Positions 5,158 through 55,711 of a stretch of DNA of 55,711 nucleotides are shown one piece after another; the first letter of the stretch is position 1, and each line of letters begins with the position of its first letter. The notes under the pieces were generated by a model that was not told the origin of the DNA, searched no databases, and saw nothing but the letters and a program-made list of their open reading frames with translations. The translations under genes and the position numbers were made by a program. Source of the stretch: a virus (Duplodnaviria > Caudoviricetes); IMG/VR virus record IMGVR_UViG_3300046822_000225, positions 1 through 55,711 of that record. One strand, written 5' to 3'.

Positions 5158-6438
5158 ATGCCAGCCACAGCGACCCCCACGCTCAAGGACCGCCTGAAGG
5201 AGGTCCGCGAGAGCCTGTCCGCGCTGCGCGACACGCGCGCCGCGGCGCTCATCGAGCGTGACGCCGCCAAGAAGTCCTTCGCGGGCGCCACCGACATCAG
5301 CAAGGACTCGCCGGAATTCCTGGCGGCCAAGGAAGCCGTCCGCAAGGTCGGTGAGACGGAGGACAAGATCACCGACCTCAAGGAGGTCGAGGTCGGCATC
5401 CTTGAGATGCTCGGCCAGCACGACGAGATCGCCACCGCCACCAAGGCCGCCGGCAGCGACGAGAGCCGCGAGCAGCATGGCTGGAACGCCGCGCGCCTGC
5501 TGCAGGGCGAGGACATCCGCCGTCAGCTCGCGCACGCCGCCACCACCCAGGAGCGCGTCGGACCGATCCGCCTCGGCGAGGTCGCGAGCCGCGAGACGCT
5601 CGCCGCCGACATCGCGCCGACCTCCAACCAGCGGCGCGGCGACTACTACGGCATCGTGCCGCAGCTGCTGCGCCCGCTGACGATCCTCGACATCCTGCCG
5701 ACCGCCACGATGAACGGCAACCTCCTGCCGTACACCGTCGAGTCCGGGTCGTTCCTGGCCGCGGAGACCGCTGAGGGCTCCACCAAGCCCGAGGACAGCG
5801 TCATCTACACCGACGCGTCGGCGCAGGCGCAGACGATCGCGGCGTGGATGAAGATCCGCAAGCAGGCCCTGGAGGACGTCCAGGCGATGCAGGGCATCAT
5901 CGACAACCGCCTGCGCTACTCCGTGCGTCGCCGCCTCGAGGCCCAGGTCCTCAACGGCAACGGCAGCGACCCGAACCTGCGCGGCATCCTTCAGACCAGC
6001 GGGATCGGCGCCGTCGCGTTTGACGCCGGCGAGCTCGTCGCCGACCAGATCCTGTCCGGCATCACGCTCGTTCTGCTCGCCGACGCAATGGCGGACGGCA
6101 TCGCTCTGCACCCGACCGACTGGCAGACCGTTCTGAAGGCCAAAGCCAGCGGCGACGGGCACTACTTCTCCGGCGGCCCGTTCACGATGACGCCGCAGGT
6201 GATGTGGGGAATCCCGCTGATCCCATCCAAGGCGATCCCTGTCGGACACTCGCTCGTCGGCGACTACTCGATCGGCGCGACGCTGTTCATCCGCACCGGC
6301 GTCAGCGTCTCGCTGTCGGACTCCGACCAGGACGACTTCATCAGGAACCGCATGACGTTGCTCGGTGAGATGCGCGCCGCGCTGGCCGTGTTCCGGCCGT
6401 CCGCGTTCGTCGACGTCGACCTCAGCGCCGCGCCGTGA
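5158..6438 (+). CDS. HK97-fold major capsid protein with N-terminal coiled-coil (delta) domain
   Basis: AEGSTKP, LNGNG...LRGIL, WGIP, FIRNRMTLLGEMRAALAV; RBS AAGGAGG. Confidence 0.93.
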   Translation: MPATATPTLKDRLKEVRESLSALRDTRAAALIERDAAKKSFAGATDISKDSPEFLAAKEAVRKVGETEDKITDLKEVEVGILEMLGQHDEIATATKAAGSDESREQHGWNAARLLQGEDIRRQLAHAATTQERVGPIRLGEVASRETLAADIAPTSNQRRGDYYGIVPQLLRPLTILDILPTATMNGNLLPYTVESGSFLAAETAEGSTKPEDSVIYTDASAQAQTIAAWMKIRKQALEDVQAMQGIIDNRLRYSVRRRLEAQVLNGNGSDPNLRGILQTSGIGAVAFDAGELVADQILSGITLVLLADAMADGIALHPTDWQTVLKAKASGDGHYFSGGPFTMTPQVMWGIPLIPSKAIPVGHSLVGDYSIGATLFIRTGVSVSLSDSDQDDFIRNRMTLLGEMRAALAVFRPSAFVDVDLSAAP

Positions 6439-6806
6439 GCCCGCTCGACAGGCAGGGCAACTACTTCCCGGGCGACGTCGCTCGCCCGGACGCCGCGTTC
6501 GCATCCGCGACGAAGACAACGTCCGGCAACGACACGGCCTTCAACACCAACCAGGCCAAGTCGCTGGAGGCGTTCCTCACCGTCACCGCGGCGTCAGGAA
6601 CAACCCCCACGCTCGACGTGCGCCTGGAGACCTCGGTCGACGCCGGAGCGACATGGCGCACCGTCGCCTCACTCGCACAGATCACAGTGGCCGGCGCGCG
6701 CAACGGCGTGCTCGGACCGCTCGGCGACCAGTGCCGATGGGCCTGGACCATCGCCGGCACCACGCCCTCGTTCACGTTCAGCATCGCGGTGGAGGCGAAC
6801 AACTAG
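6435..6806 (+). CDS. Putative capsid decoration protein (beta-rich)
   Basis: Overlaps capsid stop; GTTPTLDVRLETSVD..W..RWAWTIAGTTPSFTF beta-sandwich-like pattern. Confidence 0.55.
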   Translation: MSPLDRQGNYFPGDVARPDAAFASATKTTSGNDTAFNTNQAKSLEAFLTVTAASGTTPTLDVRLETSVDAGATWRTVASLAQITVAGARNGVLGPLGDQCRWAWTIAGTTPSFTFSIAVEANN

Positions 6807-27738: not shown

Positions 27739-27869
27739 TGCAGGACAACCCGAGCAGCCGCCCGCGTCGCCTGGCAGGCGCGATAGCGCACCTTGCGAGA
27801 ACGCTCACCAAAAACCGCGAGTGGCCGCCTGACCGTGACCTACACTCGACCGCGCTTCCATGGAAGCGT

Positions 27870-27943
27870 CCCCCGGTAGCTCAGCGGATAGAGCACGCCT
27901 TTTGCGAAGGTCGAGGTCGCAGGTTCGAATCCTGCCCGGGGGA
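27870..27943 (+). tRNA. tRNA-Arg-like gene with aberrant anticodon arm (GCG, or TGC in the alternative register)
   Basis: CCCCCGG/CCGGGGG acceptor stem, GCTC-AGCGGATA-GAGC D arm, GCAGG-TTCGAAT-CCTGC T arm; one extra nt in the anticodon/variable region; no CCA. Confidence 0.8.
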
Positions 27944-28049
27944 TTCTCGGCACCTGTTGGACACGCTCGCGGCACCGCCGCTAGCATCCGTGGTCCTTCG
28001 CAAAAGGCGCTGCTGCCGCTGTGCGCAGGATCGGCCTGACGGTCGACAT

Positions 28050-41989: not shown

Positions 41990-43033
41990 CCGATCTCGAC
42001 ATCGACCTCACGATCGTCATCCCCAACAAGCTCGACGCGTGCCGCCGGCTGGGCGTCGACCCAGACGTGCTGTTCGGCGTGAGCGCCGGGCTGCGCGGCC
42101 AGCTGGAGGAGCGTTACGGGCGCCGTCACGCCGTCTCACCGGTCCAGCGCGCCAACGCTGTCGCCGCCGACCTCGTTCTGCTCGGCATGACGATTCAAGA
42201 CGAGGGGCTGCTGTGCCCGCCACCGCCGACCGCGGACGAGGAGCGGGATGTCGCACGACACGTCGCCGACGACGACCACGGACCGTTCGACCCGGAAGAT
42301 CTCGTGAGCTGGGCCGAGACTTATGGACACCCCGAGGGCTGGGCGAAGCGCGCCCAGGCCGCGCACGCGCGCGCCGAGCGCCTCCAGGAGGAACTTCGAG
42401 CCGCCCGTGACGCCGCGCCCCAGGCACCCGGAGCCGGCACGTGACGCCGCAGGACTACACCCGGGTGATCACGCACGCGCACGCGATCCGGATGTTCGCC
42501 CGCGAGGTCGACGGCGTCGACGAGGCGCTCGAGCTGATCGAGCGCGCCGAGACCGTCGGCCCGATCCTTGACGCCACGCTCTACCAGCAGCGCTCCGGCG
42601 CGATGCGCGAGGACCGCGACACCTTGCGAGCGGTGCGCGCGCTCGCGCAACTGGGAGCGCGCACATGACCGCCGCCTCGATCACGCGCGCCTCGGACCTG
42701 ACCAAGCTGACGCTCGTCGTGCTGCGCGCGGTCCATGAGGTAGGCACGCCTACCGCTTCGCGCGACGCGATCCGCCAGATCGTTCCGTGCAGCGACGCCG
42801 GCCTCACGCGCGCGCTGAACACCCTGCGCCGCCACGGGCTCGTCGAGCTCGGCGCCTGGCCCGCGCTGCTGAACCTCGTCACGCGCGCCGGCCACCAGGT
42901 GCTCGACGAGCACTACCACCGGTCGCCGCGCTGCCGCGCCTGCGGATGCACCCAGAACGTCGCCTGCGATGGCGGGTGCTCCTGGGCTGAGCCCGATCTG
43001 TGCAGCAGCTGCGCGACGGAGGTGCTCTTCTGA
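41986..43033 (+). other. Three hypothetical ORFs (41986-42444, 42441-42668, 42665-43033; the last has a wHTH plus Cys-rich CRACGCT..AC..GCSW..LCS.C domain)
   Basis: Translational coupling and motifs. Confidence 0.65.
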
Positions 43034-45093
43034 TGCAGACGTCTCTGTTCAGCGCGGGACTACAGCGCGCCGGCACCCCCGTGATCGCGAGTGCGTCGTG
43101 CTGGTACTGCTGCGGCATCGGCGTGCTCGAGGCGACCGACATGTTCTGCGGCGCCGGCGGCAGCTCGCTGGGCCTTGAGTTCGTGTGCTGCCCGGCCTGC
43201 GGCCGGCAGCTGATCACGATCACGCAGGCGATCAACCACTGGGATCTCGCTGTCGAGGCGCACAACGCGAACTTCCCCAACGCCGATCACGACGTCCACG
43301 ACGTCCATGAGATCCCGGCCAAGCGCTTCCGGCGCACGCCGGTGTTCTGGGCCAGCCCGGAGTGCGTGAACCACACCAGCTGCAAGGGCAAGCGCGACGA
43401 CAGCCCCGAGGCGCAGCGATCGCGCGCGACGTTCACGGACATCGTCAGGTTCACGGCCTATCACCGCTATGACGCGGTGATCGTCGAGAACGTCGTCGAG
43501 GCCAGATTGTGGTGCGAGCACGAGGACTGCGCGTGCGGCGGCGAGTTCGACGCGTGGTATCAGGCGATGCTCGACGAGGGCTACGTCGGGCAGATCGCCT
43601 ACTTCAACAGCCAGTTCGCGTTGCCGACGCCACAGAGCCGCGACCGCATGTACGTCGTCTTCAGCCGCGTCGGCGCGCGGCTGCCGAACGTCGACTTCCG
43701 GCCGATGTCGTGGTGCTCGTCGTGCACCCAGGTCGTGCATGGCATCCAGACGTGGAAGCCGGCGTCCAAGGGCTCCGCGCGCGAGCGGATCTTCGAGTGG
43801 GGCCGCTACGGCCCGCAGTACCTGTACCGCTGCCCCAACGATGGCTGCGCGGCCGCGGTCGCGCCGGCGGTGATCGGCGCTAGGTCGATCATCAACTTCG
43901 GCCTGCCGATCGAGCGGATCGCTGACAAGCCGCCGACGCTGTGCCGGTCGTGCGGCAAGCGTCACCCGGTCGCGTGCAACACGCGCCGGCGCATCCGAGT
44001 CGGCATACAGAACGTCGGGTCCCGGGTGCCCGTCGCGGTGCAGGTCGGCGGCAACCTGTTCGAGCGCGCCGGCAAGGCGCGGGTGTGGTCGCTGGAGGAT
44101 CCGCTGCGCACCATCACCGGCACGTCGTGCATGGCCTTGGTCACGCCGATGCGCGACGGCAGCGTGCCGGCGAGCGCGGCCCAGCCGACGCCGACCGTCA
44201 CCGGCCGCTCGCAGCTGGGGCTCGTCACGCCCGCCGGCGGGCAGGACGCGGCCGCGCGCAGCATCGACGACGCGATGCACACGGTCCTCGGCAGCGAGCG
44301 TCTCGCGGTCGTGCTGCGCACGGGTGGGCAGGCAGCGGCGGAGCGTGATGCTGCCGAGCCGCTGAACACGGTCACCTCACATGACCGCCAGATCGGCCTG
44401 GTCATGCAGAACATGGAGCACAACCTCCCGCGCGACGTCGACGAGCCGAGCCCGCCGGTCACGACACGCGGCAACCACATGCTGGTGCAGGTCAACCGCG
44501 GCGACGGCAAGGACCGCAAGCGCGCCGGCCGGCGCGCATGGGACGTCGACGAGCCCACGCCGACGATCGCGGGGCATGGCGAGCTCGGTCTCGTCGAGTT
44601 CCGTGGTCAGCACGGCACCATCCGCGAAGGCGACGCGCCGATGCACACCGTCACCGCGCAGGGCACCCACCACGGCATGCTCGTCTACAACGGCGTGCCC
44701 GGCTTCGTGCGCGACCTACAAGATGCCGCCGGGACGATCACCGGCCGCGACAAGCAGAGCCTGCTGGTGCCGTACTTCCGCACCGGCGTCGCGCGCGGCA
44801 CCGACGAACCACTCGGGACCGTCACATCACACGACCGCGAAGCCCTCGTCATCACCGACGCCGACGTCGACGAGATGTTCCTGCGGATGCTGCAGTGGGA
44901 GGAGCTGCTGCGCGCGCAGGTCATGGACCTGCACCCCGACGGCACGCCCTACCAGCTGACCGCGAGCCGGCGCAACAAGCGCGGCAAGATGGTCGAGCTG
45001 AGCAACGAGCTGCGCACGAAGATGATCGGGAACGCCGTCAGCTGCCCGGTCGCGACGATGCTCGGCGCGGCTGTCATGGAGTCGCTGCGATGA
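43033..45093 (+). CDS. DNA (cytosine-5)-methyltransferase with long repeated variable region
   Basis: FCGAGG, SPEC, ENV, PQSRDR, GNAV motifs. Confidence 0.92.
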   Translation: MQTSLFSAGLQRAGTPVIASASCWYCCGIGVLEATDMFCGAGGSSLGLEFVCCPACGRQLITITQAINHWDLAVEAHNANFPNADHDVHDVHEIPAKRFRRTPVFWASPECVNHTSCKGKRDDSPEAQRSRATFTDIVRFTAYHRYDAVIVENVVEARLWCEHEDCACGGEFDAWYQAMLDEGYVGQIAYFNSQFALPTPQSRDRMYVVFSRVGARLPNVDFRPMSWCSSCTQVVHGIQTWKPASKGSARERIFEWGRYGPQYLYRCPNDGCAAAVAPAVIGARSIINFGLPIERIADKPPTLCRSCGKRHPVACNTRRRIRVGIQNVGSRVPVAVQVGGNLFERAGKARVWSLEDPLRTITGTSCMALVTPMRDGSVPASAAQPTPTVTGRSQLGLVTPAGGQDAAARSIDDAMHTVLGSERLAVVLRTGGQAAAERDAAEPLNTVTSHDRQIGLVMQNMEHNLPRDVDEPSPPVTTRGNHMLVQVNRGDGKDRKRAGRRAWDVDEPTPTIAGHGELGLVEFRGQHGTIREGDAPMHTVTAQGTHHGMLVYNGVPGFVRDLQDAAGTITGRDKQSLLVPYFRTGVARGTDEPLGTVTSHDREALVITDADVDEMFLRMLQWEELLRAQVMDLHPDGTPYQLTASRRNKRGKMVELSNELRTKMIGNAVSCPVATMLGAAVMESLR

Positions 45094-45157
45094 CCGGCGC
45101 CGCGCGCCGCCGGCGCTCCTATGGCGAGCGGACAGCGCCGGCGGCAGCGGCGCCTGT

Positions 45158-45415
45158 TCAGGAGGCCCTCTTCACGTGATCGGGCTCTGCGCTCAGCACG
45201 AGATCGATCCTTCTCGCGGCGTGCCTGCGCCAGGTCGTGCCGTCGGCGTCCACGATCCAGTCGCGCACACCGCCGTCGAGCATCGGCTGCACGCGAACGG
45301 CGCCGTCGTCGAAACCCCACACCATCAGCCGCCCGACCTCCTGGGCCGCGAGCCGGCACACGGCCAGCCACTGCAGCGGCGCGAGAGGATGGCCCGCATA
45401 GCTGACGGCTTCCAT
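45158..45415 (-). CDS. Hypothetical antisense protein between the methyltransferases
   Basis: Protein-like composition (MEAVSY..MVWGFDDGAVRV..DWIVDADGTTW); + frames look less protein-like. Confidence 0.5.
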   Translation of the reverse strand: MEAVSYAGHPLAPLQWLAVCRLAAQEVGRLMVWGFDDGAVRVQPMLDGGVRDWIVDADGTTWRRHAARRIDLVLSAEPDHVKRAS

Positions 45416-45441
45416 GGCACGCGAGCCTACGGCGGGCGGAC

Positions 45442-46416
45442 ATGACGACCGGCGCGTTCCCGACCGCCGCGCCGTTCGCGTGGTACGGCGGCAAGCAGCG
45501 CATGGCGCCGGCGATCGTGAACCTGCTGCCGCCACACCGCACCTACGTGGAGGCGTTCGGCGGGGCCGCGGCAGTCCTGTGCGCGAAGCGGCCGGCGGTC
45601 CTCGAGGTCTACAACGACGTCGACGCCGGCCTCGTCACGTTCTTCCGGGTCCTGCGCGATCGCCCCGAGGAGCTGGAGCGCGCATTGCGCTTGACGCCCT
45701 ACGCCCGCGACGAGTTCGCGCAGTGCGTCCAGACCTGGGAGGCGATCGAGGATGACCTCGAGCGCGCGCGCCGCTGGTACGTCCGCTGTCGCCAGGCGTT
45801 CGCCGGGTCGGCGGCGACGGTCGGCTGGGGCTATGAGATCAGCGGAGTCCAGCGCGCGGGCACGCGGGCGTCGTCGTTCGCGACCTCGGTAGAGCAGCTG
45901 GAGCGCTTCGCCGAGCGCTTCCGTCGCGTGCAGATAGACCAACTCGGCTGGGAGGCCGTGCTCGAGCGCTACGACGGCCCTCAGACCTGCTGGTACCTCG
46001 ATCCGCCGTATCACCCGGCGACGCGTGGCGAGCGCGGATTGCGTCGCAACGCGGCCTACGTGCACGAGCTGGACGCCGCGGGCCATGACGACCTTGTCGC
46101 GGCCGCGATCGCCCTCAAGGGGTCGGTCGTCATCTCCGGCTACGACCACGAGTCCTACCGCCCGCTGGTTGACGCCGGCTTCGAGCGGTTCACGTTCGCC
46201 CACAACGCGTCGGCGTCGCGGGTGTTCAGCGGCCGCGGCGTGCGCACGGAGGTTGTTTGGCGCCGGCTTGAGGCGGGCGTGCACCACATCTCGCGCTTGT
46301 GGTCTGACGACGAGGCCTCCCTTGCGTCGGACGTAGACGACGGTCAGATCCCAGGCCAGCTCACGGTCGAGCAGGTCCTCGCCGACCACGACCGCAAGGG
46401 AGCCCCTGCGTCATGA
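45442..46416 (+). CDS. dam: Dam-family (D12) DNA adenine methyltransferase
   Basis: WYGGK, YVEAFGG, YNDVD, YLDPPY, ISGY. Confidence 0.93.
   Translation: MTTGAFPTAAPFAWYGGKQRMAPAIVNLLPPHRTYVEAFGGAAAVLCAKRPAVLEVYNDVDAGLVTFFRVLRDRPEELERALRLTPYARDEFAQCVQTWEAIEDDLERARRWYVRCRQAFAGSAATVGWGYEISGVQRAGTRASSFATSVEQLERFAERFRRVQIDQLGWEAVLERYDGPQTCWYLDPPYHPATRGERGLRRNAAYVHELDAAGHDDLVAAAIALKGSVVISGYDHESYRPLVDAGFERFTFAHNASASRVFSGRGVRTEVVWRRLEAGVHHISRLWSDDEASLASDVDDGQIPGQLTVEQVLADHDRKGAPAS
46390..46413 (+). repeat. 24-bp junction element, copy 5
   Basis: GACCGCAAGGGAGCCCCTGCGTCA; last A begins the ATGA stop/start. Confidence 0.9.
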
Positions 46417-47394
46417 CCGGCCTCGCCGCCATCGCGCATCTCGGAGACCTACCTTCGTGGCTGACCTGGGGACAGGCCGCATGGACAGCGGGCGACGCCA
46501 CACCCCTGGAGGCCATCTGGTTCACGGTGGCCTGCTACTGCTGGTGTGGTTGCGTACTCGGCCTGCTCGGCTGGTTGATCGCAGCCGAGGAGCCCGGCGA
46601 GGAGACCCTCGTCATCGTCTTCGTCGGAGCGTTCGTTGGCCTGATGTGGCCGATCGTTCTGGGCGCCGGGATGCTCGCGGCGATCGGTTACGCGATCGTC
46701 GTGCCGCCGCGGGCCGCTCTGGCGCGCCATCGTCGCTCTGTTGGTGCGGCTCGCGCGGCGGCTGACGCGCGCCGCGACCGGATCGCGGAGCTTGAGCGCG
46801 ACCTGGAGATCACATGATGGCGGCCTCGACGATGGGCGGGGAGCGCATCCTGAAGCAGATCCGCGACGGTCTGGTCTCGGAGCTCTCCTGGTTTCAGCGC
46901 CGCAACCTCCTTGACGGCTCGCCGCCGGCGCCGCTGCGCGAGGCGCAGATCCCGGACAGAGATCGGCTGGAGGAGTACGCCACGGCGGTCGCCGTGGTTT
47001 GCGACCTGACCGAGTCGATCCTGAACCTGGAGCAGGCGATCGCGCTCGTCCCGGCGACAGACGATGGCCTGCAGCTCGCGATCGATCGCGCGCTCAGCAT
47101 CCTGGGTGACTCCGAGTGGCTTGACGGCCGCTCGACGGTCGGCACGCGCGCGATCCGCGATGTTCTCGCGCCGTTCGCGTCGAGGCCGTCATGAGCGCGC
47201 TCGTCTGCCCGACGTGCGGTGTGCGCTGGCGGATCGTTGTCGGCACCGACGACATGCAGCGCGCCTGCCCGCTGCACGCGCCCGCAGGCGACCCGCCGGC
47301 GCCGCGCGTTCGCGGCGCCGGCCTGCCTGACCTGCAGCCGCAGATCGCGCACGCTCGCCGCCGCACGGCCACCGAGCAGACAGGCTCGGCATGA
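46413..47394 (+). other. Three small ORFs (46413-46817 membrane protein, 46814-47194, 47191-47394)
   Basis: ATGA overlaps; TM helices in the first. Confidence 0.6.
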
Positions 47395-47771
47395 CGACGG
47401 CCACGCGCGACGCGCCGGTTCAGGCGCCCGACCGCTCGCTGCAGCAGCGCCGGGCCGCGCTGCGCAAGGCCAACGACATACGGGTTGCGCGCGCCGCACT
47501 GAAGCGCAAGCTCAACCACACACGCCGGCCCGATGCGCTGCGCGAGGTCGCGGCGCACATCCTGCAGCCCGACGACACGCTGCTCACGATGAAGGTCGCG
47601 GACCTCCTGATGGCATGCCCATCGGTCGGCGCCTACAGGGTGCATCAGGTCCTGACCAGGGGCCGGATCAGCCCCAACAAGACGATCGGCGGTCTCGCCG
47701 ACGCGCAGCGCAAGTGGCTGGCGTTCGCGCTGTCTCAGATCGCCGGCCGCAGGACGATCGGCTTGCGATGA
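47391..47771 (+). CDS. mihF: Actinobacterial-type integration host factor homologue
   Basis: QR.AAL.KAN.IR..RA.LK..L, MKV.DLL...P.VG, RISP.KTIGGL...QR match mIHF/sIHF signatures. Confidence 0.85.
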   Translation: MTTATRDAPVQAPDRSLQQRRAALRKANDIRVARAALKRKLNHTRRPDALREVAAHILQPDDTLLTMKVADLLMACPSVGAYRVHQVLTRGRISPNKTIGGLADAQRKWLAFALSQIAGRRTIGLR

Positions 47772-48043
47772 GCGGCGCGCCGCTGACGGTCGCCGCGGCC
47801 GCGCAGCTCGCCGGCGTGCACCCCAAGACGATCCGCCGCGCGATCGATCGTGGTGATCTGCGTGCGATGCGCCCGGGCGGCGGGCGCAAGATCGTGGTCC
47901 TCGAGCCGGACCTGGTCGCGTGGCGTGATCAGCCGGTCGTTCCGCGATCGCGCACGGTCGATGTGTCACCGAGGCCTTCCCGCCGGCCGCCGGAGCGGGG
48001 TAGCCTCGCGGCCCTGCGTGCAATGGAGAGGAGCCGACGGTGA
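47768..48043 (+). CDS. xis: Excisionase (HTH_17-like)
   Basis: LTVAAAAQLAGVHPKTIRRAIDRGDLRA; directly upstream of the integrase. Confidence 0.85.
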   Translation: MSGAPLTVAAAAQLAGVHPKTIRRAIDRGDLRAMRPGGGRKIVVLEPDLVAWRDQPVVPRSRTVDVSPRPSRRPPERGSLAALRAMERSRR

Positions 48044-49155
48044 GCGACGGCCGAAAGTCAAACGGTAAGTGGGTGGACCGCTGGCATGAGGGCACGGTGA
48101 AGCGCCAGCGCACGTTTGACCTCAAACGCGACCGTGACACCTTCCGGCGCGAGCGCATCCGCCGCCAGCAGCTCGGCGACGTCGTGATCGTCGCGCGTGA
48201 CGTCACGCTCGCGGTGTTCGTGGAGGAGTGGTGGCAGGAATACGCGCTCGTCGAGCTCGAGCGCAGCACCCGTGCGACCTACGCGCAGACGTGGGAGAAG
48301 CACCTGCGCGCCCGCGTCGGCGGGTTCGCGCTGCGCCAGCTGGACACCGATGTCGTGCTCGACCTGCGCCAGGCGCTCACGAGCGCCGGCGCCGGCGCGC
48401 CGACGATCGCCAAGTCCCTCGTCGTGTTGCAGAGCATCCTGAGCTTCGCGGTGCTGAAGAAGCGCATCGCATTCAACCCGGTCGCGAGGGTCCGCAAGCC
48501 CTCGATCACACCAAGCCGTCAGGTCGCGCCGATCCCGCCCGCGGTTGTCGAAGACCTCCGCGCGCGCCTGAGCGCGCGTGACGCGATGCTCGTGTCCGTG
48601 CTCGCGTACGCCGGCCTGCGGCCGCAGGAAGCGCTCGCGCTGCACGGCGAGGACATCAGCGACCGCAAGATCTTCGTGCACCGCAAGGTCGTCGACGGCG
48701 AGCTGCTCGGCTACACCAAGACCCGCCGCAACCGCTGGGTGCGGCTGCTCGGCCCGCTCGCGCAGGACCTCGCCGAGTACCGCCTCGCGACAGGCCGCCG
48801 CGACGGGCTGCTGTTCCCGCGCGCGGACGGGGAACCGTGGCGCGCACACGACTGGCGCAACTGGCACCGCCGCATCTACCAGCCGAACGCGGCCGCGGTG
48901 GGTCTGATCGGCGCACGCCCGTACGACCTGCGCGGCTCGTTCGTGTCGCTGCTGATCTGGGAGGGACAGACGATCGTGGAGGTCGCCAGGCAGGCCGGCC
49001 ACAGCGTCGCGACGTCTGACCGGCACTATGCGAGGATGTTCGAGGACTTCGATCCGGACGCCCGGCAGTCGGCCGAAGACGCGATCCGAGCAGCCCGCCA
49101 ACCTGGTGGACGCGGAATGGACGCGCTCTTCGACCTGGAGGTCGGCCGGTCGTGA
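48040..49155 (+). CDS. int: Tyrosine integrase
   Basis: AGLRPQEALAL (R), TKT (K), YDLR, AGHS, HY catalytic residues. Confidence 0.95.
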   Translation: MSDGRKSNGKWVDRWHEGTVKRQRTFDLKRDRDTFRRERIRRQQLGDVVIVARDVTLAVFVEEWWQEYALVELERSTRATYAQTWEKHLRARVGGFALRQLDTDVVLDLRQALTSAGAGAPTIAKSLVVLQSILSFAVLKKRIAFNPVARVRKPSITPSRQVAPIPPAVVEDLRARLSARDAMLVSVLAYAGLRPQEALALHGEDISDRKIFVHRKVVDGELLGYTKTRRNRWVRLLGPLAQDLAEYRLATGRRDGLLFPRADGEPWRAHDWRNWHRRIYQPNAAAVGLIGARPYDLRGSFVSLLIWEGQTIVEVARQAGHSVATSDRHYARMFEDFDPDARQSAEDAIRAARQPGGRGMDALFDLEVGRS

Positions 49156-49478
49156 TCACGAGCCCACGAAATCCCTGCAAAGATGCAGGACACGCCCTCC
49201 TAGCTCAGTTGGTAGAGCACTTCCATGGTAAGGAGGTGCAGGGTGTCCACGCAGGGCCTTCCCAGTCATCGGGAGCCGCGAAAACACCTGCTCACGCCCC
49301 TGAAACGAGTGGACACCGAGACGCCGCCGGGCGCCCGCTGACCGGTCCTGACGGACGCGCAAAGGACGCGCTGACCGCAGCTCCCAACCCACGGGTTATG
49401 CGATACATGCAGAGCGACGCTCGGGCCCGCAACATTCGAGATCGACGCGCGGGCGAGACGGACGCGCAAAGGACACAC
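49108..49478 (+). other. attP: core 49194-49236 with tandem arm-type repeats at 49108-49126, 49353-49371 and 49460-49478
   Basis: GGACGCG-N4-GGAC(G/A)C pairs on both sides of a tRNA fragment next to int. Confidence 0.8.
49194..49236 (+). tRNA. 5' half of tRNA-Thr(GGT); truncated, probable att core
   Basis: GCCCTCC TA GCTC AGTTGGTA GAGC A CTTCC ATGGTAA GGAGG, with no T arm or 3' acceptor strand. Confidence 0.88.
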
Positions 49479-49757
49479 ATGACCTCCGCGCGATCGGGCG
49501 CCGCCGTCGGACAAGGCCTCGGGGTAGCCCATGAGCTCGCGGCGACCGCGACCACTGAGCACATGCTCGCGATGGAGGCCGCGCAAACCGCCCTGTTTCA
49601 TGCGATCAAGGCGGGGGGGAGGCGCTCATCGCGGCACGCCAGCACATTTCACCGGCTGACTGGACGGACTGGTTGAAGAGCAACTTTGGATCCTTGGTTT
49701 CAGACGGCACATACCCACATCCGGTTGGCTACCTATCAGGAACTGCTATCGCTGAAT

Positions 49758-50222
49758 ATGTCGATGGCCCGCGCGAAGCAGGAGCTGTTCGGCTTACCCC
49801 GCGTTGTGCATCCCAGCGCAACCCGAGTTCGGACCTACGACCAGCACACGCGCGCGTCAGCCTTGGAGCTTCGCTCAGGAGGCCTTGCGATCGGCGAGAT
49901 CGCGGAAACGTTGAGCATTCCACCTCAGACAATCAGAAACTGGGTGCTCGATCCTGAGACGAAAGCCCCAAGAGCAGCGTTCACGCTCGCTGTCGAGGCG
50001 CATGCAGAAGGCAAAGGATCAGGAGCGCCTGAGGGAACTCAGGACAGAACGGGCTCAGCGGGGCTGCCGATCGGCAAGCGGGCAAAGCAATCGCCGAAAG
50101 CTACGCCTCGGTTCGGAAACTGGCGCAGGCTCTCGACAAGGCTCACTCGCAAGCTCAGAGCAACGCTCACAGGACCCGTCTTAGCGACGCCCTATCAAGG
50201 GCCTACGCGATCGAGGACATAA
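49758..50222 (+). CDS. HTH protein in a lower-GC patch; start uncertain
   Basis: ALELRSGGLAIGEIAETLSIPPQTIRNWV. Confidence 0.5.
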   Translation: MSMARAKQELFGLPRVVHPSATRVRTYDQHTRASALELRSGGLAIGEIAETLSIPPQTIRNWVLDPETKAPRAAFTLAVEAHAEGKGSGAPEGTQDRTGSAGLPIGKRAKQSPKATPRFGNWRRLSTRLTRKLRATLTGPVLATPYQGPTRSRT

Positions 50223-50269
50223 TTCAATTTTGCCTTGGCGTCGACGACTCGTGAGCAGGCTCGATCTCA

Positions 50270-50891
50270 CGATGCTTGCGCCGTGTCGCCATCGCGGCGG
50301 ACAAGGGCGGGCGCCCGTGGTTGTGGCTCGCGAGCGAGGCCGCCGATCACGGCGGCTATCCGCAGCACGTCCTTGCGCGAAGGCGATGTCGGACTGATCT
50401 GCGAGACCTACGACGAGCCCCCCGACCATCCGGCGATCACGCCCGAGTTCATCGCGACGTTCGACCCGCCGACCGTTCTCGCGCTGCTCGATCTTTGTTA
50501 GGTCGCGCCAGGAGGTCGCCGACGTGCGTGACGAGGCCGAGCGCCTGCGCGCGGCGTTGTGCGATCTGCTCGGCAACTCAGAGTTGCCGGTGCGACCGCC
50601 CGCTCGTCGTCGAGCCGTGCTCGAAATGTCGATGCACGCGCGTCCTGGATACGTGACCTTCTCGACCGTGTTCGCTCAGGGATGGGAAGCGGCCGGCCGG
50701 GACCTGCCGGAGCCCGACATCTCTCACGGGCAATGCAGGCATGGCCGATTGACCTCGCCGACGCCCCGCCAGGACTGCGAAGACCGCGGGCCTGTCGATC
50801 ACGGAAGATCGCCGAGCTCGCGGGCGTGACGCGCCAGACCCCCGTCTACACGGCGCTGATCGGCCGCGAGCGCCTGATCGCCGGCGAATAG
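50270..50891 (+). pseudogene. Fragmented Ead/Ea22-like and HTH remnants
   Basis: FIATFDPPTVLALLD and IAELAGVTRQT motifs in broken frames. Confidence 0.5.
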
Positions 50892-50938
50892 ACCGGGGAC
50901 GCGATACTCGACACCCTCGTCGCCAACCATCCCCCCGA

Positions 50939-51580
50939 TCACCGGCGACTGTTGACCTTGAGGTCTGCGCGTGCGAGGACGTAACGCACGCTCGAGCGCG
51001 CGATGTTGAGGCGCACGGCGATCTCGCGGGTGCTGAGGTGGCGCCGGTAGAGGCGCAGGATCTCGGCGTTGCGTTGCTCGAGCGGGAGCTCCTTGCCGTT
51101 CTGGGGGGGCTCGCCGAACTCGATGTCGCGGCCGGCAGCTTCGCGGGCGCGCCAGATGTCGGTGACGCCGCAACGGAAGGCGTTGGCGACATCGCGAGCG
51201 CTGAAGCCCTTGCCCTCCTTGATGATGCGCTCGTCGCGGTCGGCCTTGGACTCGACTTTGGTGCGGTCCGCGGATGACCGGCGGATGTGCTCGAGCATCG
51301 CGACCGCCTCCTCGAGCACGCGCTGGCGCTCGCCAACGTCGCCGGCGAGATCCCAGAGGTCGGCGTAGAGCAGGTGAGGCGCGTCTCCGCGCGCGAGCTT
51401 CGCGCGGCCGCGATCGTCGACGAGGGTGTAGTCGGGGGTGCCGCCGCCGTTGGCGTCGTAGGCGCTGATCCGCGCGTTGCTGGTGAGCGCCAGGGCCAAC
51501 AGCACGTCACGCATGCGTGTCTCGAGCTCGTCCAAGGCGGTATTGACCCGCTGGTGACGGTACCAACGAACGGCCACCAA
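50939..51580 (-). CDS. Protein with two HTH motifs (possible transcription regulator); start uncertain
   Basis: SARDVANAFRCGVTDIWRAR and STREIAVRLNIARSSVRYVL. Confidence 0.75.
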   Translation of the reverse strand: MVAVRWYRHQRVNTALDELETRMRDVLLALALTSNARISAYDANGGGTPDYTLVDDRGRAKLARGDAPHLLYADLWDLAGDVGERQRVLEEAVAMLEHIRRSSADRTKVESKADRDERIIKEGKGFSARDVANAFRCGVTDIWRAREAAGRDIEFGEPPQNGKELPLEQRNAEILRLYRRHLSTREIAVRLNIARSSVRYVLARADLKVNSRR

Positions 51581-51663
51581 CTCTAAACCCGTGGTTGAGA
51601 GTTGGTACGTTGTGGCCCATCGGCGCCCAAGGCCCCTGCCCGCGGCGCCTCGCTACCCGGCCG

Positions 51664-52863
51664 ATGCCAGACCTCTGCGAGCCGGAGGCGCAGCAACCGC
51701 ATCGCCTTGACGCCGCAGAGCGCTTCCGCCTGGTGCGGGCGCTGTGGCGCATGGGCCTGTGGCCGCTGCGCCTTCCCGGCGTCACCCACGACAGCCCGTT
51801 GTGCCAGGGCTACGCGAACGGCTGCATGTGCGCGCACTGCGACGCGCGGGAGCACCCGACGCCGGCGCCGCCGGCGGCCAGGCAGCCATGGGAAGCGCAG
51901 TGACCGAGGAGGTAGAGCCTGTGACGCTCGACATTAACACGCCTGCCGGTGAGCCGCCGCGCGCGCTGCTGGATGATGCGCTGCGCGAGCTGCTCGGGCA
52001 GGTGACGATCACCGCGTCGATGAGTCAGCGCCCGCCGCAGCTGTGGCCGTCCATCACGCAGGCGCGGATCGCGCAGGAGATGGACGACGTCGAGGACACC
52101 GTCCGCGCGTTGCGCAACGTCGCGCACGCGGCGATCGCGAGCATCGTGCGTGTCCGCGCGGCGGCCGAGCCGACATGAGCGAGCGCAAGCTATCCGCCGC
52201 GCAGGCGATGGCCTGGGCGACCGCCGAAGTCACCGCGCTGCAGATCAAGGCGACGCTGGACGCGGCCAAGAAGCGATGCGACGAGCTGCGTGCCCGCTAT
52301 GAGTCGCGCCTGCAGCCCAGCACCGACCCCGACGACGTCGACAAGGACGTCAAGGTCGCGACCGCCGGCGGCTGGTCGATCCGTCGCACGCGCTTCACCG
52401 GCGGCGAGCGCTTCTCGCTCACCGGCTACGTCAAGGCCGGCCACGACATCACGCCCGAGATGTCAGCGCACATCAGCGCCGGGAGCCCGCAGGTCCGCGT
52501 CACCGTCAAGCGCGTCGCCGGCCCGACCAAGCCCGGCGCCGTCGAGCGCACCTCGTGAAGCCGGTCAAGCACGCGGGCTCCGACGTCTGTTACCGCGGAC
52601 CATCGCCGGACATCGGCGATCTGTGGTGCATGCGCGAACGGCCCGGTCTGATCAACGTGGTCTACGAACTCGACGATGCCGAGCGCGCGCAGATCGCCGC
52701 CGGCGGGCGCATCATGCTCGGCGTCTGGAACGAGCCGATACCGCCGCTCTCGATGCGGATCCTCGACGAGCGGCAGTGCCGCCCTGTCGATGAGCACCCA
52801 TGGAAGGTTGGTGGTGCTGGCGGCCATGTGATCGCCGAGCTTGAGGACCCCGAGCGGTCCTGA
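51664..52863 (+). other. Four small hypothetical ORFs (51664-51903, 51900-52178, 52175-52558, 52555-52863)
   Basis: Translational coupling. Confidence 0.6.
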
Positions 52864-53819: not shown

Positions 53820-53892
53820 AGCGGCTGAAGGGTCTCGAACCCTCGACCTCGACGTTGGCAACGTCGCGCTCTTCCAGCTGAGCTACAGCCGC
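53820..53892 (-). tRNA. tRNA-Gly(GCC), full length, no encoded CCA
   Basis: Reverse complement GCGGCTG TA GCTC AGCTGGAA GAGC G CGACG TTGCCAA CGTCG AGGTC GAGGG TTCGAGA CCCTT CAGCCGC T. Confidence 0.93.
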
Positions 53893-54038: not shown

Positions 54039-54263
54039 TCAGGGCCTCACCGTCCGGCCCAGCACACCACCGGTCGCGCCAGCCGCCCGATTCGCCAGCG
54101 CATCCAAACGGGCCGTGACGAACGCGTAGGACCCCGATCCCTGGCCGTTGAGGATCGCCAACAGCCGATGACGCTCCGCACGGCACGGCGCCGAGCAGCA
54201 CAGCGCGTCCGCTCGCATCCCATCCAGCGACCGGCCGTCGATCACGCAGCGCCGCTCATCCAT
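54039..54263 (-). CDS. Small Cys-motif protein
   Basis: RC..DG....MRADALCCSAPCR; same strand as tRNA-Gly. Confidence 0.55.
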   Translation of the reverse strand: MDERRCVIDGRSLDGMRADALCCSAPCRAERHRLLAILNGQGSGSYAFVTARLDALANRAAGATGGVLGRTVRP

Positions 54264-54981
54264 GGATCCATCGATCTCAGCCACCACGCGGATGATCGCC
54301 TACCTCCGCGTCAGCACCGACGAGCAGGCGATGAGCGGCCTCGGCATGGAAGGACAGCAGGAAGCGCTGCGCAGGGCGTTCGCCTACCGCGGCTGGGAGC
54401 TCGTCGACACCGTCCGCGACGACGGCGTCACCGGCAGCACGCTGCAGCGGCCCGGGCTGCAGCGTGCCCTGCGCCTGATCGCTGCCGGCGCCGCGGACGG
54501 CCTGGTCGTCGCCAAGCTCGACCGCCTCACCCGATCGATGCGCGACTTCTGCGAGCTGATCGACTGGTTCGAAGACGCCCGCAGCGCCCTCGCGATGCTC
54601 GAGCCCGACGTCGACACGTCCACGCCCGCCGGCCGCGCAGTCGCGCACGTGATGGTCGCCTTCGCAGAGATGGAGCGCGGCATGATCGCCGCGCGCACCA
54701 AGACCGCGCTGCAAGCCAAGCGCGCCCGCGGCGAGTCGATCGGGCGTCCGGCGATCGCCGACCGCCCCGAGCTCGCGCAGCGCATCCGCCACATGCGGGA
54801 GGTGCAGGACATGACGTTCCAGGCGATCGCCGACCGTCTCAGCAGCGAGCGCGTGCCGACCGCGCGCGGCGCGGCCACCTGGCGGCCCAGCAGCGTGCAG
54901 GCCGCCGCCGGCTACCGCCGGCCGCCCGCGCCGCGCCGACGGGCCGCGCTGCCACCGATCCCACGCGCGGGCGCCCGCTGA
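54262..54981 (+). CDS. Serine recombinase (resolvase/invertase family); alternative start 54292
   Basis: YLRVST (catalytic Ser), RPGL, KLDRLTRS, AEMER..I..RT; short C-terminal IADRL..PTARG..W DNA-binding domain. Confidence 0.93.
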   Translation: MDPSISATTRMIAYLRVSTDEQAMSGLGMEGQQEALRRAFAYRGWELVDTVRDDGVTGSTLQRPGLQRALRLIAAGAADGLVVAKLDRLTRSMRDFCELIDWFEDARSALAMLEPDVDTSTPAGRAVAHVMVAFAEMERGMIAARTKTALQAKRARGESIGRPAIADRPELAQRIRHMREVQDMTFQAIADRLSSERVPTARGAATWRPSSVQAAAGYRRPPAPRRRAALPPIPRAGAR

Positions 54982-55665: not shown

Positions 55666-55711
55666 CGTAGGGGGGCGGGTCACAGGGCCCTGCCCGACCG
55701 TCAGCGGCGAC

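Follow-up and report, generated by a model that had tools for sequence, protein, structure and literature searches.

In the lambda intasome, an integrase whose sites lie to either side of the core depends on a bending protein, and Xis sets the direction of the reaction. The excisionase of mycobacteriophage L5 is gp36. mIHF/sIHF is a host factor, essential in mycobacteria and required by the L5 integrase. Excerpts of PMC3627587 describe the stimulation of L5 integration by mIHF by way of a complex with Int and attP, and give the fold of actinobacterial IHF as a long alpha-1 helix, followed by an H2TH motif and by a lid that precedes the final helix. Here we describe a locus in a 55.7-kb window, by which we mean the whole stretch of viral DNA that was analysed (55,711 nucleotides), where genes for an IHF of the actinobacterial type, an excisionase and a tyrosine integrase are followed by a candidate attP (Table 1).

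Identity and relatives of the phage IHF

The ORF at 47391-47771 encodes a genuine phage-borne protein of the actinobacterial IHF family, although one that has diverged strongly, and has a coding signature of GC1/2/3 = 0.69/0.52/0.90. An earlier note on this DNA had described the ORF as mIHF-like and had proposed a comparison with the models and structures of mIHF and sIHF, and the family models, sequence matches and structural comparison agree on this assignment and on an H2TH fold. The cut-offs of two family models are passed, those of Pfam PF22525 H2TH_5 (31.6 bits against 27) and, by a narrow margin, of NCBIfam NF041260 'integration host factor, actinobacterial type' (60.8 bits against 60), and phmmer searches of PDB sequences matched the ORF to mIHF 6TOB (E 6.3e-11; residues 11-110 on 6-102 of 109) and sIHF 4ITQ (E 1.6e-8). 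AF2 gave a pLDDT of 49.5 from the single sequence, and an alignment-based model with a pLDDT of 94.3 was used instead. The five helices of this model (17-42, 46-58, 69-74, 81-90 and 104-124) comprise the long N-terminal helix of the described fold and four short helices with the H2TH motif, together with a lid of approximately 11 residues, and the top four PDB folds returned by Foldseek were all sIHF or mIHF (6BEK, 4ITQ, 6TOB), with TM values of 0.77-0.78 normalised on the sIHF chains. The conserved residues of the lid and of the start of the last helix give a mixed picture in the family alignment: R92, K97, Q106 and R107 are present, and the nearly invariant S103 and R105 of the family are both Ala in the phage IHF; sIHF has N opposite A105 in the phmmer alignment.

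By similarity, the nearest relatives of the phage IHF are IHFs encoded on Solirubrobacterales chromosomes. Of at least 598 genomic matches, the best 80 came almost entirely from Solirubrobacterales or Thermoleophilaceae MAGs, which bears out a likeness to Solirubrobacterales, and with it a hint at the host, that the earlier note had put forward. The phage protein is 45-52% identical to the nearest chromosomal copies, whereas the host copies are tightly alike, with 68 of them falling into 5 clusters at 80% identity. The chromosomal locus is conserved as carB...IHF-gmk-rpoZ-coaBC, and among the 80 genomic loci gmk was found at 79, rpoZ at 77, coaBC at 76 and carB at 75. Because the phage IHF lies outside this housekeeping locus, between phage ORFs and xis-int, it is a xenologue rather than an orthologue. 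A phylogeny against host copies had been suggested at the outset. In a tree of 98 IHF sequences (112 columns), the phage copies have long branches and the host copies short ones, and no supported sister of the window protein emerged, 68 of the 95 inner branches being unsupported. This weakly supported tree therefore does not distinguish one capture from many and names no donor.

Solirubrobacterales is the probable host order on three independent lines, namely the likeness of the IHF, the relatives of the integrase and the identity to tRNA-Thr. To our knowledge, no phage of this order has been isolated. The alternative that 49.2-55.7 kb represents the host flank of a prophage was considered and is less likely, as the two contigs that flank the core are equally deep (11.7 and 12.2), the completeness of the record is rated at 100%, and the right part consists of small phage-like ORFs leading back to terminase and portal at the left end.

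Gene order and candidate attP

The IHF gene is the fifth in a chain of seven consecutive ORFs (D12 methylase, three small ORFs, IHF, Xis and Int) joined by 4-nt stop/start overlaps from 45442-46416 through 48040-49155. The overlaps that the earlier note had reported are read directly from the sequence, with ATGA linking ihf to xis (xis ATG 47768-47770, ihf TGA 47769-47771) and GTGA linking xis to int (int GTG 48040-48042, xis TGA 48041-48043); however, since such overlaps span seven genes from 45442, the coupling is not special to ihf-xis-int. The three small ORFs at 46413-47394 have GC3 values of 0.80-0.88 and overlap each neighbour by 4 nt, and DNA-metabolism genes (C5 methylase, D12 methylase, AAA ATPase) lie upstream of the IHF in the window. 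The xis ORF exceeds the cut-offs of PF12728 HTH_17 (40.4 bits against 27) and TIGR01764 'excise' (32.2 against 28.8) and matches phrog_66 and phrog_7506, and the int ORF matches PF00589 (33.2 bits against 27.1) and the integrase family phrog_1 (E 5.4e-44). In an alignment of Int with 15 relatives, R194, R298 and Y330 are invariant and K227 is nearly so; H321 is present, the first His position is occupied by Tyr (Y295), as it is in the consensus of the relatives, and approximately 55 residues precede the SAM-like core-binding domain. A promoter and terminator scan of 45000-51800 returned 0 promoter-like sites and 2 terminator-like sites, compared to 2.0 in shuffles, and did not call the hairpin at 49173-49188 as a terminator.

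The claim that attP directly follows int has been substantiated to the extent that a candidate lies there: a tRNA-like segment begins 38 nt past the int stop and is flanked by repeats. The core at 49193-49234 extends from one base upstream of tRNA position 1 as far as the 3' strand of the anticodon stem. It is 95% identical to the tRNA-Thr(GGT) of five out of five Solirubrobacterales genomes; an exact 41-mer of the core occurs at 23 places in 21 of 401 genomes of the order, and 79 of the 401 contain it within 1 mismatch. A soil contig is 100% identical to the window over 49193-49234, and, as the loose ends of contigs indicate, similarity to real tRNAs ends at 49234-49236. The whole segment has an 8-nt gap in the T arm, scores 25.8 bits against the Rfam tRNA model (below the gathering score of 29) and received no ARAGORN call; it is no functional tRNA. 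The correspondence of the candidate attP core to the 5' half of tRNA-Thr(GGT) is an unusual detail.

Candidate arm-type repeats lie around the core, two on the P' side and a weak copy on the P side, inside int. The two copies in the P' arm (49347-49372 and 49450-49474) share an exact 18-mer, at 49350 and 49457, which has no other occurrence in the window at up to 3 mismatches; shuffles of this search gave a mean of 0.26 matches, and 5 of 100 reached 2. The P-arm repeat at 49102-49127 is 85% identical to 49347-49372 over 26 nt and differs from the 18-mer by more than 3 mismatches. An exact-pattern scan of genome contigs for attL/attR junctions, using 50 nt of the tRNA-like segment, returned 0 matches, as did an exact-pattern scan of metagenome contigs for the 49-nt P-arm/core junction. 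The contigs of four runs showed only tRNA-sharing loose ends at the core and no attL/attR junction, and from the runs with a small share came nothing but the tRNA portion and short fragments resembling an integrase. These negative results do not in themselves speak against the site. Contigs of the probable source run break inside the core; these breaks were rejected as evidence of integration, because a repeat shared with host tRNAs breaks the assembly graph.

Table 1. Features of the ihf-xis-int region and the candidate attP, in window coordinates.
Position	Strand	Feature	Basis
45442-46416	+	D12-class N6-adenine DNA methyltransferase, first of seven chained ORFs	PF02086, E 1.9e-16
46413-46817	+	Small ORF, 134 aa	without Pfam or PHROG family
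46814-47194	+	Small ORF, 126 aa	without Pfam or PHROG family
47191-47394	+	Small ORF, 67 aa, CxxC...C..H	without Pfam or PHROG family
47391-47771	+	Phage-encoded actinobacterial-type IHF (mIHF/sIHF family), 126 aa	HMM, PDB sequence, AF2/Foldseek
47768-48043	+	Excisionase / recombination directionality factor (HTH_17 type), 91 aa	HMM matches
48040-49155	+	Tyrosine integrase, 371 aa	PF00589, phrog_1
49102-49127	+	Weak third copy of arm-type repeat, inside int 3' end (P arm)	26-nt similarity
49173-49188	.	Hairpin, 6-bp stem, 4-nt loop, between int stop and tRNA-like segment	sequence
49193-49234	+	Candidate attP common core, 42 nt, 5' part of tRNA-Thr(GGT)	identity to tRNA genes
49194-49258	+	Whole tRNA-like segment, intact 5' half, decayed 3' half	Rfam sub-threshold
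49347-49474	+	P' arm with two repeat copies, candidate arm-type Int sites	exact 18-mers

Distribution of the phage IHF and of related integrases

An alignment-based pattern survey, which used one peptide pattern and is to be read as a sample, found the same IHF type at 27 loci on 27 other soil viral contigs. The housekeeping genes carB, gmk, rpoZ and coaBC were present at 0 of these 27 loci compared to 75-79 of the 80 genomic loci, so that the viral loci are not host flanks. The neighbours of the IHF in the viral contigs include DUF5906 primase-helicases, phage ssDNA-binding proteins, Rad52-like and PD-(D/E)XK proteins, as well as IstB/DnaC-like loaders, SNF2 helicases and DNA methylases, and the context in the window, with DNA-metabolism genes before the IHF, matches this setting.

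The proposal of a self-contained, host-independent ihf-xis-int cassette found no support in these surveys. A tyrosine integrase was found in 7 of the 27 IHF-carrying viral records and a serine recombinase in 1, leaving 20 without a tyrosine integrase, a count to be read with the fact that 16 of the 27 are less than 90% complete and that an integrase could lie off the contig. Among the 11 records that are at least 90% complete, however, 1 contained a tyrosine integrase, 0 a serine recombinase and 10 neither. The linkage for which the earlier note had proposed a survey of viral databases was likewise rare: a recombinase lies directly downstream of the IHF in 1 of the 27 records, L009, where the stop codon of the IHF gene overlaps the start codon of the gene for a tyrosine recombinase of 265 aa. 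The tyrosine integrase lies 0-6.6 kb downstream of the IHF on the same strand in 5 of the 7 records that contain one. Approached from the integrase, an IHF was found within 1.5 kb of related Int genes at 0 of 30 loci in Solirubrobacterales genomes and within 4 kb at 0 of 17 viral loci, while 12 of the 30 genomic relatives have Xis-like matches upstream and 9 of the 30 lie beside tRNA-Thr. Additionally, since 250 of the 251 genomes sampled from the probable host order encode their own IHF, the phage IHF is unlikely to serve the purpose of host independence.

Matches outside these surveys were few. Single-protein scans of viral contigs returned no relatives of either the IHF or Int, and alignments were needed for both. 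Besides the query itself, a word-index protein search with the phage IHF, which is insensitive for such a protein, returned a single protein, 46% identical, from a contig of 1,967 bp. No match was obtained by tblastn of three IHF queries against 50,697 INPHARED records or of the phage IHF against PLSDB plasmids. PHROGs contained 0 families for the phage IHF, with 2 of 67 relatives weakly matching one unnamed family, and a phage-borne mIHF-type protein was not found in the literature searched.

Possible roles of the phage IHF

That related phages carry the IHF without an integrase makes a general DNA-architecture protein more likely than a dedicated integration kit, and we lean towards the view that the phage IHF is a general early architectural protein rather than part of a self-contained integration module. 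The gene neighbourhood is the basis on which a general early role is probable. Such a protein would bind and bend DNA with little sequence specificity and would help in the replication, recombination and transcription of phage DNA. It is most likely made together with Xis and Int and could, for that reason, also act as a bending factor at attP, bridging the core and arm sites. This role at attP is plausible, and the candidate repeats around the core would fit it; in excerpts of PMC3627587, mIHF forms an intasome with the L5 integrase and attP.

Set against a general role, the immediate adjacency of ihf, xis and int with overlapping codons suggests a dedicated recombination cofactor, in which case the phage IHF would be specialised for the phage intasome and would bend attP, attL and attR for Int and Xis, either independently of the host IHF or better than with it. 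The position of the candidate attP and its flanking repeats are consistent with such a cofactor, the residues ahead of the Int core-binding domain would fit an arm-binding domain, and the excerpts of PMC3627587 provide a precedent in L5 for mIHF. The IHF of L009, which directly precedes a tyrosine recombinase, and the downstream integrases in 5 of the 7 integrase-containing records point in the same direction, and the divergence of the phage IHF from the tightly alike host copies could reflect specialisation. However, most IHF-carrying records are without a tyrosine integrase, nearly all of the near-complete ones are without either recombinase family, no IHF accompanies the Int relatives at the 30 genomic and 17 viral loci, nearly all sampled genomes of the probable host order have their own IHF, and the overlap chain spans seven genes; we therefore regard a dedicated cofactor as somewhat unlikely. 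It is quite improbable that the phage IHF acts on the host nucleoid, rivalling or replacing the essential host IHF on the chromosome in order to reprogramme transcription or topology, or to shield phage DNA from silencing. The occurrence of the gene in phages apparently without integrases and the long branches of the phage copies compared to the host copies would be in keeping with such interference, as would excerpts of the literature in which sIHF alters DNA topology together with TopA (PMC3627587), mIHF is described as an essential global regulator (PMC6155035) and phage-borne homologues of Lsr2, another actinobacterial nucleoid protein, are known (PMC7074111). However, the change of R105 to Ala could equally mean weaker DNA binding, and a location among genes for replication and recombination is just as compatible with action on the phage's DNA.

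A separate alternative concerns the att site, since the tRNA-like segment could be a decaying phage tRNA or the scar of an old imprecise excision, with the real attP located elsewhere. The degenerate 3' half would fit this, as would the arrangement of the locus, in which int and the tRNA point the same way and the 5' half is the one nearer to int, while relatives are arranged as int-> <-tRNA or tRNA->xis->int; attL/attR junctions were also absent from the genome contigs, metagenome contigs and four runs scanned. We nevertheless consider this alternative doubtful, because identity to real host tRNA-Thr(GGT) genes persists over the first 42 nt, whereas the 3' half is degraded, as one would predict for a site that contributes just its 5' half to the regenerated tRNA. 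In addition, the segment lies directly after int between repeats, relatives of Int are found beside tRNA-Thr, and, according to excerpts of PMC4383910, the configurations accepted by the Islander algorithm include the displacement of a 5' tDNA fragment by an island.

A more far-reaching version, which we think unlikely to be correct, is that co-evolution of the phage IHF with Int, Xis and attP has produced a portable four-part system, in which this IHF rather than that of the host would build a host-factor-independent intasome on an attP that takes the place of the 5' half, and not the 3' half, of tRNA-Thr(GGT), and that mIHF-type proteins form an unrecognised class of chromatin proteins in soil actinophages. 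If true, this would provide a tyrosine-integrase system independent of a host factor for Thermoleophilia and perhaps for other actinobacteria; an integrase with its own bending factor would be useful for tool builders if the IHF is indeed a dedicated cofactor. Returning to the phage IHF as a general architectural protein, the diverged copy in the window and those on at least 27 other soil viral contigs, most without an integrase, add to the phage-carried chromatin proteins a family hitherto known only from the chromosomes of actinobacteria, and the window links an uncultured soil phage to Solirubrobacterales. A testable question is whether phages bring such an IHF to serve their replication and packaging, to aid recombination or to upset the nucleoid of the host.

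Comparison with known systems

The phage IHF shares its family and five-helix architecture with mIHF of Mycobacterium (6TOB) and sIHF of Streptomyces (SCO1480, 4ITQ/6BEK), and is 33-36% identical to these solved proteins in structural alignments. Compared to the host form (114 aa), it is approximately 12 residues longer, has Ala in place of the nearly invariant Ser103 and Arg105, and is not encoded in the carB...IHF-gmk-rpoZ-coaBC locus. TF1, the HU-type protein of Bacillus phage SPO1, is likewise a diverged phage copy of a host chromatin protein, but from a different family. The Lsr2-like proteins of actinobacteriophages (excerpts of PMC7074111) and CgpS of prophage CGP3 are also chromatin proteins carried by mobile elements and also differ in family from IHF. 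The Int-Xis-IHF-Fis system of lambda follows the same logic as the reading of a bending factor at attP; however, the IHF of E. coli has the unrelated HU/IHF fold and is host-encoded. Mycobacteriophage L5 resembles the window in its tyrosine integrase, HTH excisionase, tRNA att site and, as candidate bending factor, an IHF of the mIHF family. The system described here differs from L5 in that the candidate core is the 5' half of a tRNA and int is co-directional with that tRNA, and in that the IHF, which comes from the host in L5, is here present as a copy on the phage itself, beside xis and int.

The integration module and its setting

The window encodes a protein with the mIHF/sIHF family fold, whose gene belongs to the end of an early operon, overlaps an xis-int pair and lies beside a tRNA-derived candidate attP (features are listed in the table). 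The coding signature of the phage ihf gene is good (GC3 0.90). The protein exceeds the cut-off of the Pfam model H2TH_5 (PF22525; 31.6 bits, cut-off 27) and barely passes that of the NCBIfam model 'integration host factor, actinobacterial type' (NF041260; 60.8 bits, cut-off 60). Its PDB sequence matches include mIHF over nearly the full length (6TOB, E 6.3e-11) and sIHF (4ITQ, E 1.6e-8). While a single-sequence structure model was unusable (pLDDT 49.5), a model built from a 67-sequence alignment reached a pLDDT of 94.3 with five helices, and its four best PDB matches were sIHF (6BEK, 4ITQ; TM 0.77-0.78 on target) and mIHF (6TOB). The modeled protein shares the architecture described for sIHF in the structural passages of PMC3627587, in which a long alpha-1 is combined with an H2TH motif and a lid. 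The earlier note had described an mIHF-like ORF coupled to xis and int by short overlaps; these elements and overlaps are borne out by family models, PDB matches and sequence, and the HMM and structure searches that it proposed recovered both the family and the H2TH fold.

Features of the window
Feature	Position	Strand	Remarks
tRNA-Ala(TGC)	27869-27944	+	
AAA ATPase	within gene run ~35-49.2 kb	+	
DUF6085 protein	within gene run ~35-49.2 kb	+	
C5 DNA methylase	43000-45093	+	697 aa, with C5-cytosine methylase domain
D12-class N6-adenine methylase	45442-46416	+	
ihf	47391-47771	+	126 aa
xis	47768-48043	+	HTH_17 / TIGR01764-type excisionase
int	48040-49155	+	tyrosine integrase (PF00589; phrog_1, E 5.4e-44)
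Weaker 26-nt repeat copy	49102-49127		inside int 3' end
Hairpin	between int stop and tRNA-like segment		
tRNA-like segment	49194-49258	+	38 nt past int stop; Rfam 25.8 bits
18-mer repeat	49350 and 49457		exact at these two places only in the whole window
HTH ORF	49686-50222		transposase-type (HTH_Tnp_1, E 1.4e-4, below cut-off)
tRNA-Gly(GCC)	53820-53892	-	
Small serine recombinase / DNA invertase	54262-54981		239 aa; phrog_95 (E 2e-46), phrog_125 (E 7.6e-42)

The window comprises an entire IMG/VR record, 55,711 bp long and classed as linear with a CheckV completeness of 100%. Genes at its left end encode a large terminase (phrog_9, E 1.3e-37) and a portal protein (phrog_12, E 1.6e-50). The ihf, xis and int genes close a long plus-strand gene run that begins near 35 kb and extends to 49.2 kb. 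An ATGA overlap at 47768 (ihf/xis) and a GTGA overlap at 48040 (xis/int) can be read in the sequence. By coordinates, however, overlaps of the same 4-nt kind link a chain of seven ORFs spanning 45442-49155, so the coupling belongs to the operon as a whole and does not mark out a three-gene cassette. Two DNA methyltransferases (C5 and D12; 43000-46416) share the early operon with the phage IHF, and viral contigs L010 and L021 likewise have DNA methylases annotated as neighbors of their IHF genes.

For about 1.7 kb past the att site (49260-50940) the coding signal is weak and the G+C content is 0.64-0.66 versus approximately 0.70; its sole recognizable ORF has a transposase-type HTH, and this stretch may have a regulatory function or represent a moron or a decayed insertion. 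The serine recombinase near the right end gives the phage a second site-specific recombinase. An independent contig in the probable source run covers 6,507 nt from 49205 and, if collinear, ends exactly at the last base of the window; this agreement in length gives a hint that position 55711 marks a physical end of the genome (cos or terminal repeat) and not an accident of assembly.

Chromosomal relatives and the probable host

Scanned in full with HMMER, 1.84 billion cluster representatives yielded 1,647 relatives of the phage IHF at E <= 0.001; the query aside, identity did not exceed 57% throughout the best 150 of these. The top-scoring relatives (P0003-P0009) are 219-242 aa long with two tandem IHF-like stretches, and viral contig L025 has two adjoining IHF matches (6001-6626); if IHF, described as monomeric, were covalently doubled in this way, the result would be a pseudo-dimer.

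A pattern scan with one genome per species identified at least 598 genomic relatives, and the best 80 of these, nearly all from Solirubrobacterales or Thermoleophilaceae MAGs, were 43-52% identical to the phage IHF, bearing out the resemblance to Solirubrobacterales IHF that the earlier note had suggested. These copies are housekeeping genes in a conserved row, carB ... IHF - gmk - rpoZ - coaBC, with gmk found at 79, rpoZ at 77, coaBC at 76 and carB at 75 of the 80 loci. Host IHFs are highly alike (68 copies fall into five clusters at 80% identity), and PF22525 matches occur in 250 of the 251 sampled genomes of the order, with a second match in about 53. Six extra genomic copies (L176-L181) lie outside the carB-gmk-rpoZ row and are 36-71% identical to host or viral IHF queries; no xis or int like those of the window was found within 1.5 kb of them.

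The phage IHF is a distant xenologue and was not recently captured from any sampled genome. The phylogeny against host copies that had been suggested gave an unresolved tree of 98 IHF sequences, in which branches are short for host copies and long for viral and unlabelled ones, and in which the window protein has no supported sister. The host order is probably Solirubrobacterales, on which three indirect lines, the IHF likeness, the Int relatives and the tRNA identity, agree, in comparisons that include no control order.

Linkage of IHF genes to xis and int

The catalytic Arg, Lys, Arg and Tyr of Int are kept in an alignment of 15 relatives, and approximately 55 residues precede its core-binding domain. 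The integrase family of the phage is common in the order: at E <= 1e-20, relatives of Int (top identity 50%) turn up in 112 of the 401 genomes. The tallies over 401 and 251 genomes take in a few flagged as unpublished (G292, G207, G068, G089 and G257). Of the 30 best genomic loci (one, L137, from G292), 12 have an Xis-like match and nine adjoin tRNA-Thr, with int and the tRNA converging in five and the tRNA followed by xis and int in four. The neighboring tRNAs recur across these loci (L114-L143) as tRNA-Thr(GGT or CGT) and at times tRNA-Val or tRNA-Ile, which points to many uncharted islands and prophages at these tRNAs in Solirubrobacterales.

A search with the alignment as query showed the same IHF type to be encoded on 27 other viral contigs, a sample seeded by one peptide pattern in which 16 records are incomplete. 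Host neighbor genes were found at none of the 27 loci, which are therefore not chromosomal flanks. The annotated genes beside viral IHFs encode a DUF5906 primase-helicase, phage ssDNA-binding protein, Rad52-like protein, PD-(D/E)XK nuclease, IstB/DnaC-like ATPase, SNF2 helicase, HNH and UDG-like proteins and DNA methylases. The ihf-xis-int linkage proposed for survey proved not to be general: tblastn found no relatives of the window Int or Xis within 6 kb at any of the 27 viral loci, there was no IHF gene within 1.5 kb of an Int relative at any of the 30 best genomic loci, and eight IHF queries found none within 4 kb of an Int relative in the 17 viral contigs with such relatives, likewise a pattern-seeded sample. 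Across whole records, PF00589 was present in seven of the 27 and PF00239 in one; among the 11 records at least 90% complete the counts were one and zero, so that ten of these showed no integrase of either family. The sole other case of direct adjacency is L009 (5965-7124), where an IHF-like gene is directly followed by one for a 265-aa tyrosine recombinase, the stop of the first overlapping the start of the second. The L009 recombinase has no long N-terminal domain (PF00589, E 2.8e-33), and the record contains two further PF00589 matches. Four more IHF-carrying records have a tyrosine integrase on the strand of the IHF gene, 4.3-6.6 kb downstream of it.

A candidate attP derived from tRNA-Thr

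The tRNA-like segment scores below the Rfam gathering score of 29 and is not called by ARAGORN. Its first 42 nt are 95% identical by alignment to tRNA-Thr(GGT) of five Solirubrobacterales genomes; its 3' half has decayed and shows an 8-nt gap in the T arm. The 41-mer starting at tRNA position 1 occurs exactly at 23 places in 21 of 401 genomes, and with at most one mismatch in 79; a soil contig matches 49193-49234 without any difference, and real tRNAs part from the phage at 49234-49236. The phage carries no tRNA-Thr among its own tRNAs (tRNA-Ala and tRNA-Gly), so the 'tRNA-dependent lysogeny' scheme, as outlined in the relevant part of PMC10865867, is inapplicable in simple form.

Int and the segment are co-directional and the phage keeps the 5' half of the tRNA, the reverse of the usual 3'-half arrangement and also of the layouts found next to Int relatives in Solirubrobacterales genomes. 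If the segment is a working attP, integration would join the phage 5' half to the 3' half of the host gene and so restore an intact tRNA beside int; the opposite junction would pair the host 5' half with the decayed 3' half of the phage, giving a dead copy. Rebuilding the tRNA in this way would explain why identity is kept only in the 5' half, and would require the phage to supply the tRNA promoter. Since the Islander algorithm allows islands that displace a 5' tDNA fragment, as set out in its description in PMC4383910, such a configuration would be unusual yet not unheard of. Exact-pattern scans of genome and metagenome contigs found no attL or attR junction, and neither did a comparison with the contigs of four runs; the attP is a well-supported candidate, not a demonstrated site.

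Possible roles of the phage IHF

Like sIHF and mIHF, the phage IHF would be expected to bind DNA with little specificity and then bend or constrain it. Because genes of this type sit in replication and recombination modules of mostly integrase-less phages, it probably has a general function above all, that of giving phage DNA the shape needed in replication, recombination or transcription. It would be made together with Xis and Int, and given the N-terminal residues of Int and the repeats on either side of the core, Int probably needs a bending factor, as the L5 Int needs mIHF according to the background in PMC3627587. The phage IHF could fill this role, but the host IHF could too. A general architectural protein with a side role at attP is the reading to which we give slightly better than even odds.

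It is also possible, if unlikely, that the protein is a dedicated recombination cofactor. Where IHF-carrying viral records have a tyrosine integrase it tends to be near, as in L009 and the four records with one several kilobases downstream; however, all but one of the near-complete IHF-carrying phages have no match to a tyrosine or serine recombinase family, and the Int relatives, genomic and viral alike, have no IHF gene beside them. Interference with the host nucleoid seems quite improbable, and the small remainder falls to a protein without function.

Comparison with known systems

No PHROG family matches the window IHF, and two of 67 relatives weakly match one unnamed PHROG. Among the 50,697 phage records of INPHARED there was no tblastn match to the window IHF, a viral relative or a host IHF, and PLSDB plasmids gave no match to the window IHF. 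Full-text searches brought up no article about a phage-encoded mIHF/sIHF-type protein, and where the sIHF paper turns to phages (PMC3627587) it presents IHF as a host factor only. Phage-borne nucleoid proteins are nonetheless known from the Lsr2 homologues of actinobacteriophages covered in the pertinent section of PMC7074111, and the window IHF resembles these in being a copy of a nucleoid protein carried by a phage.
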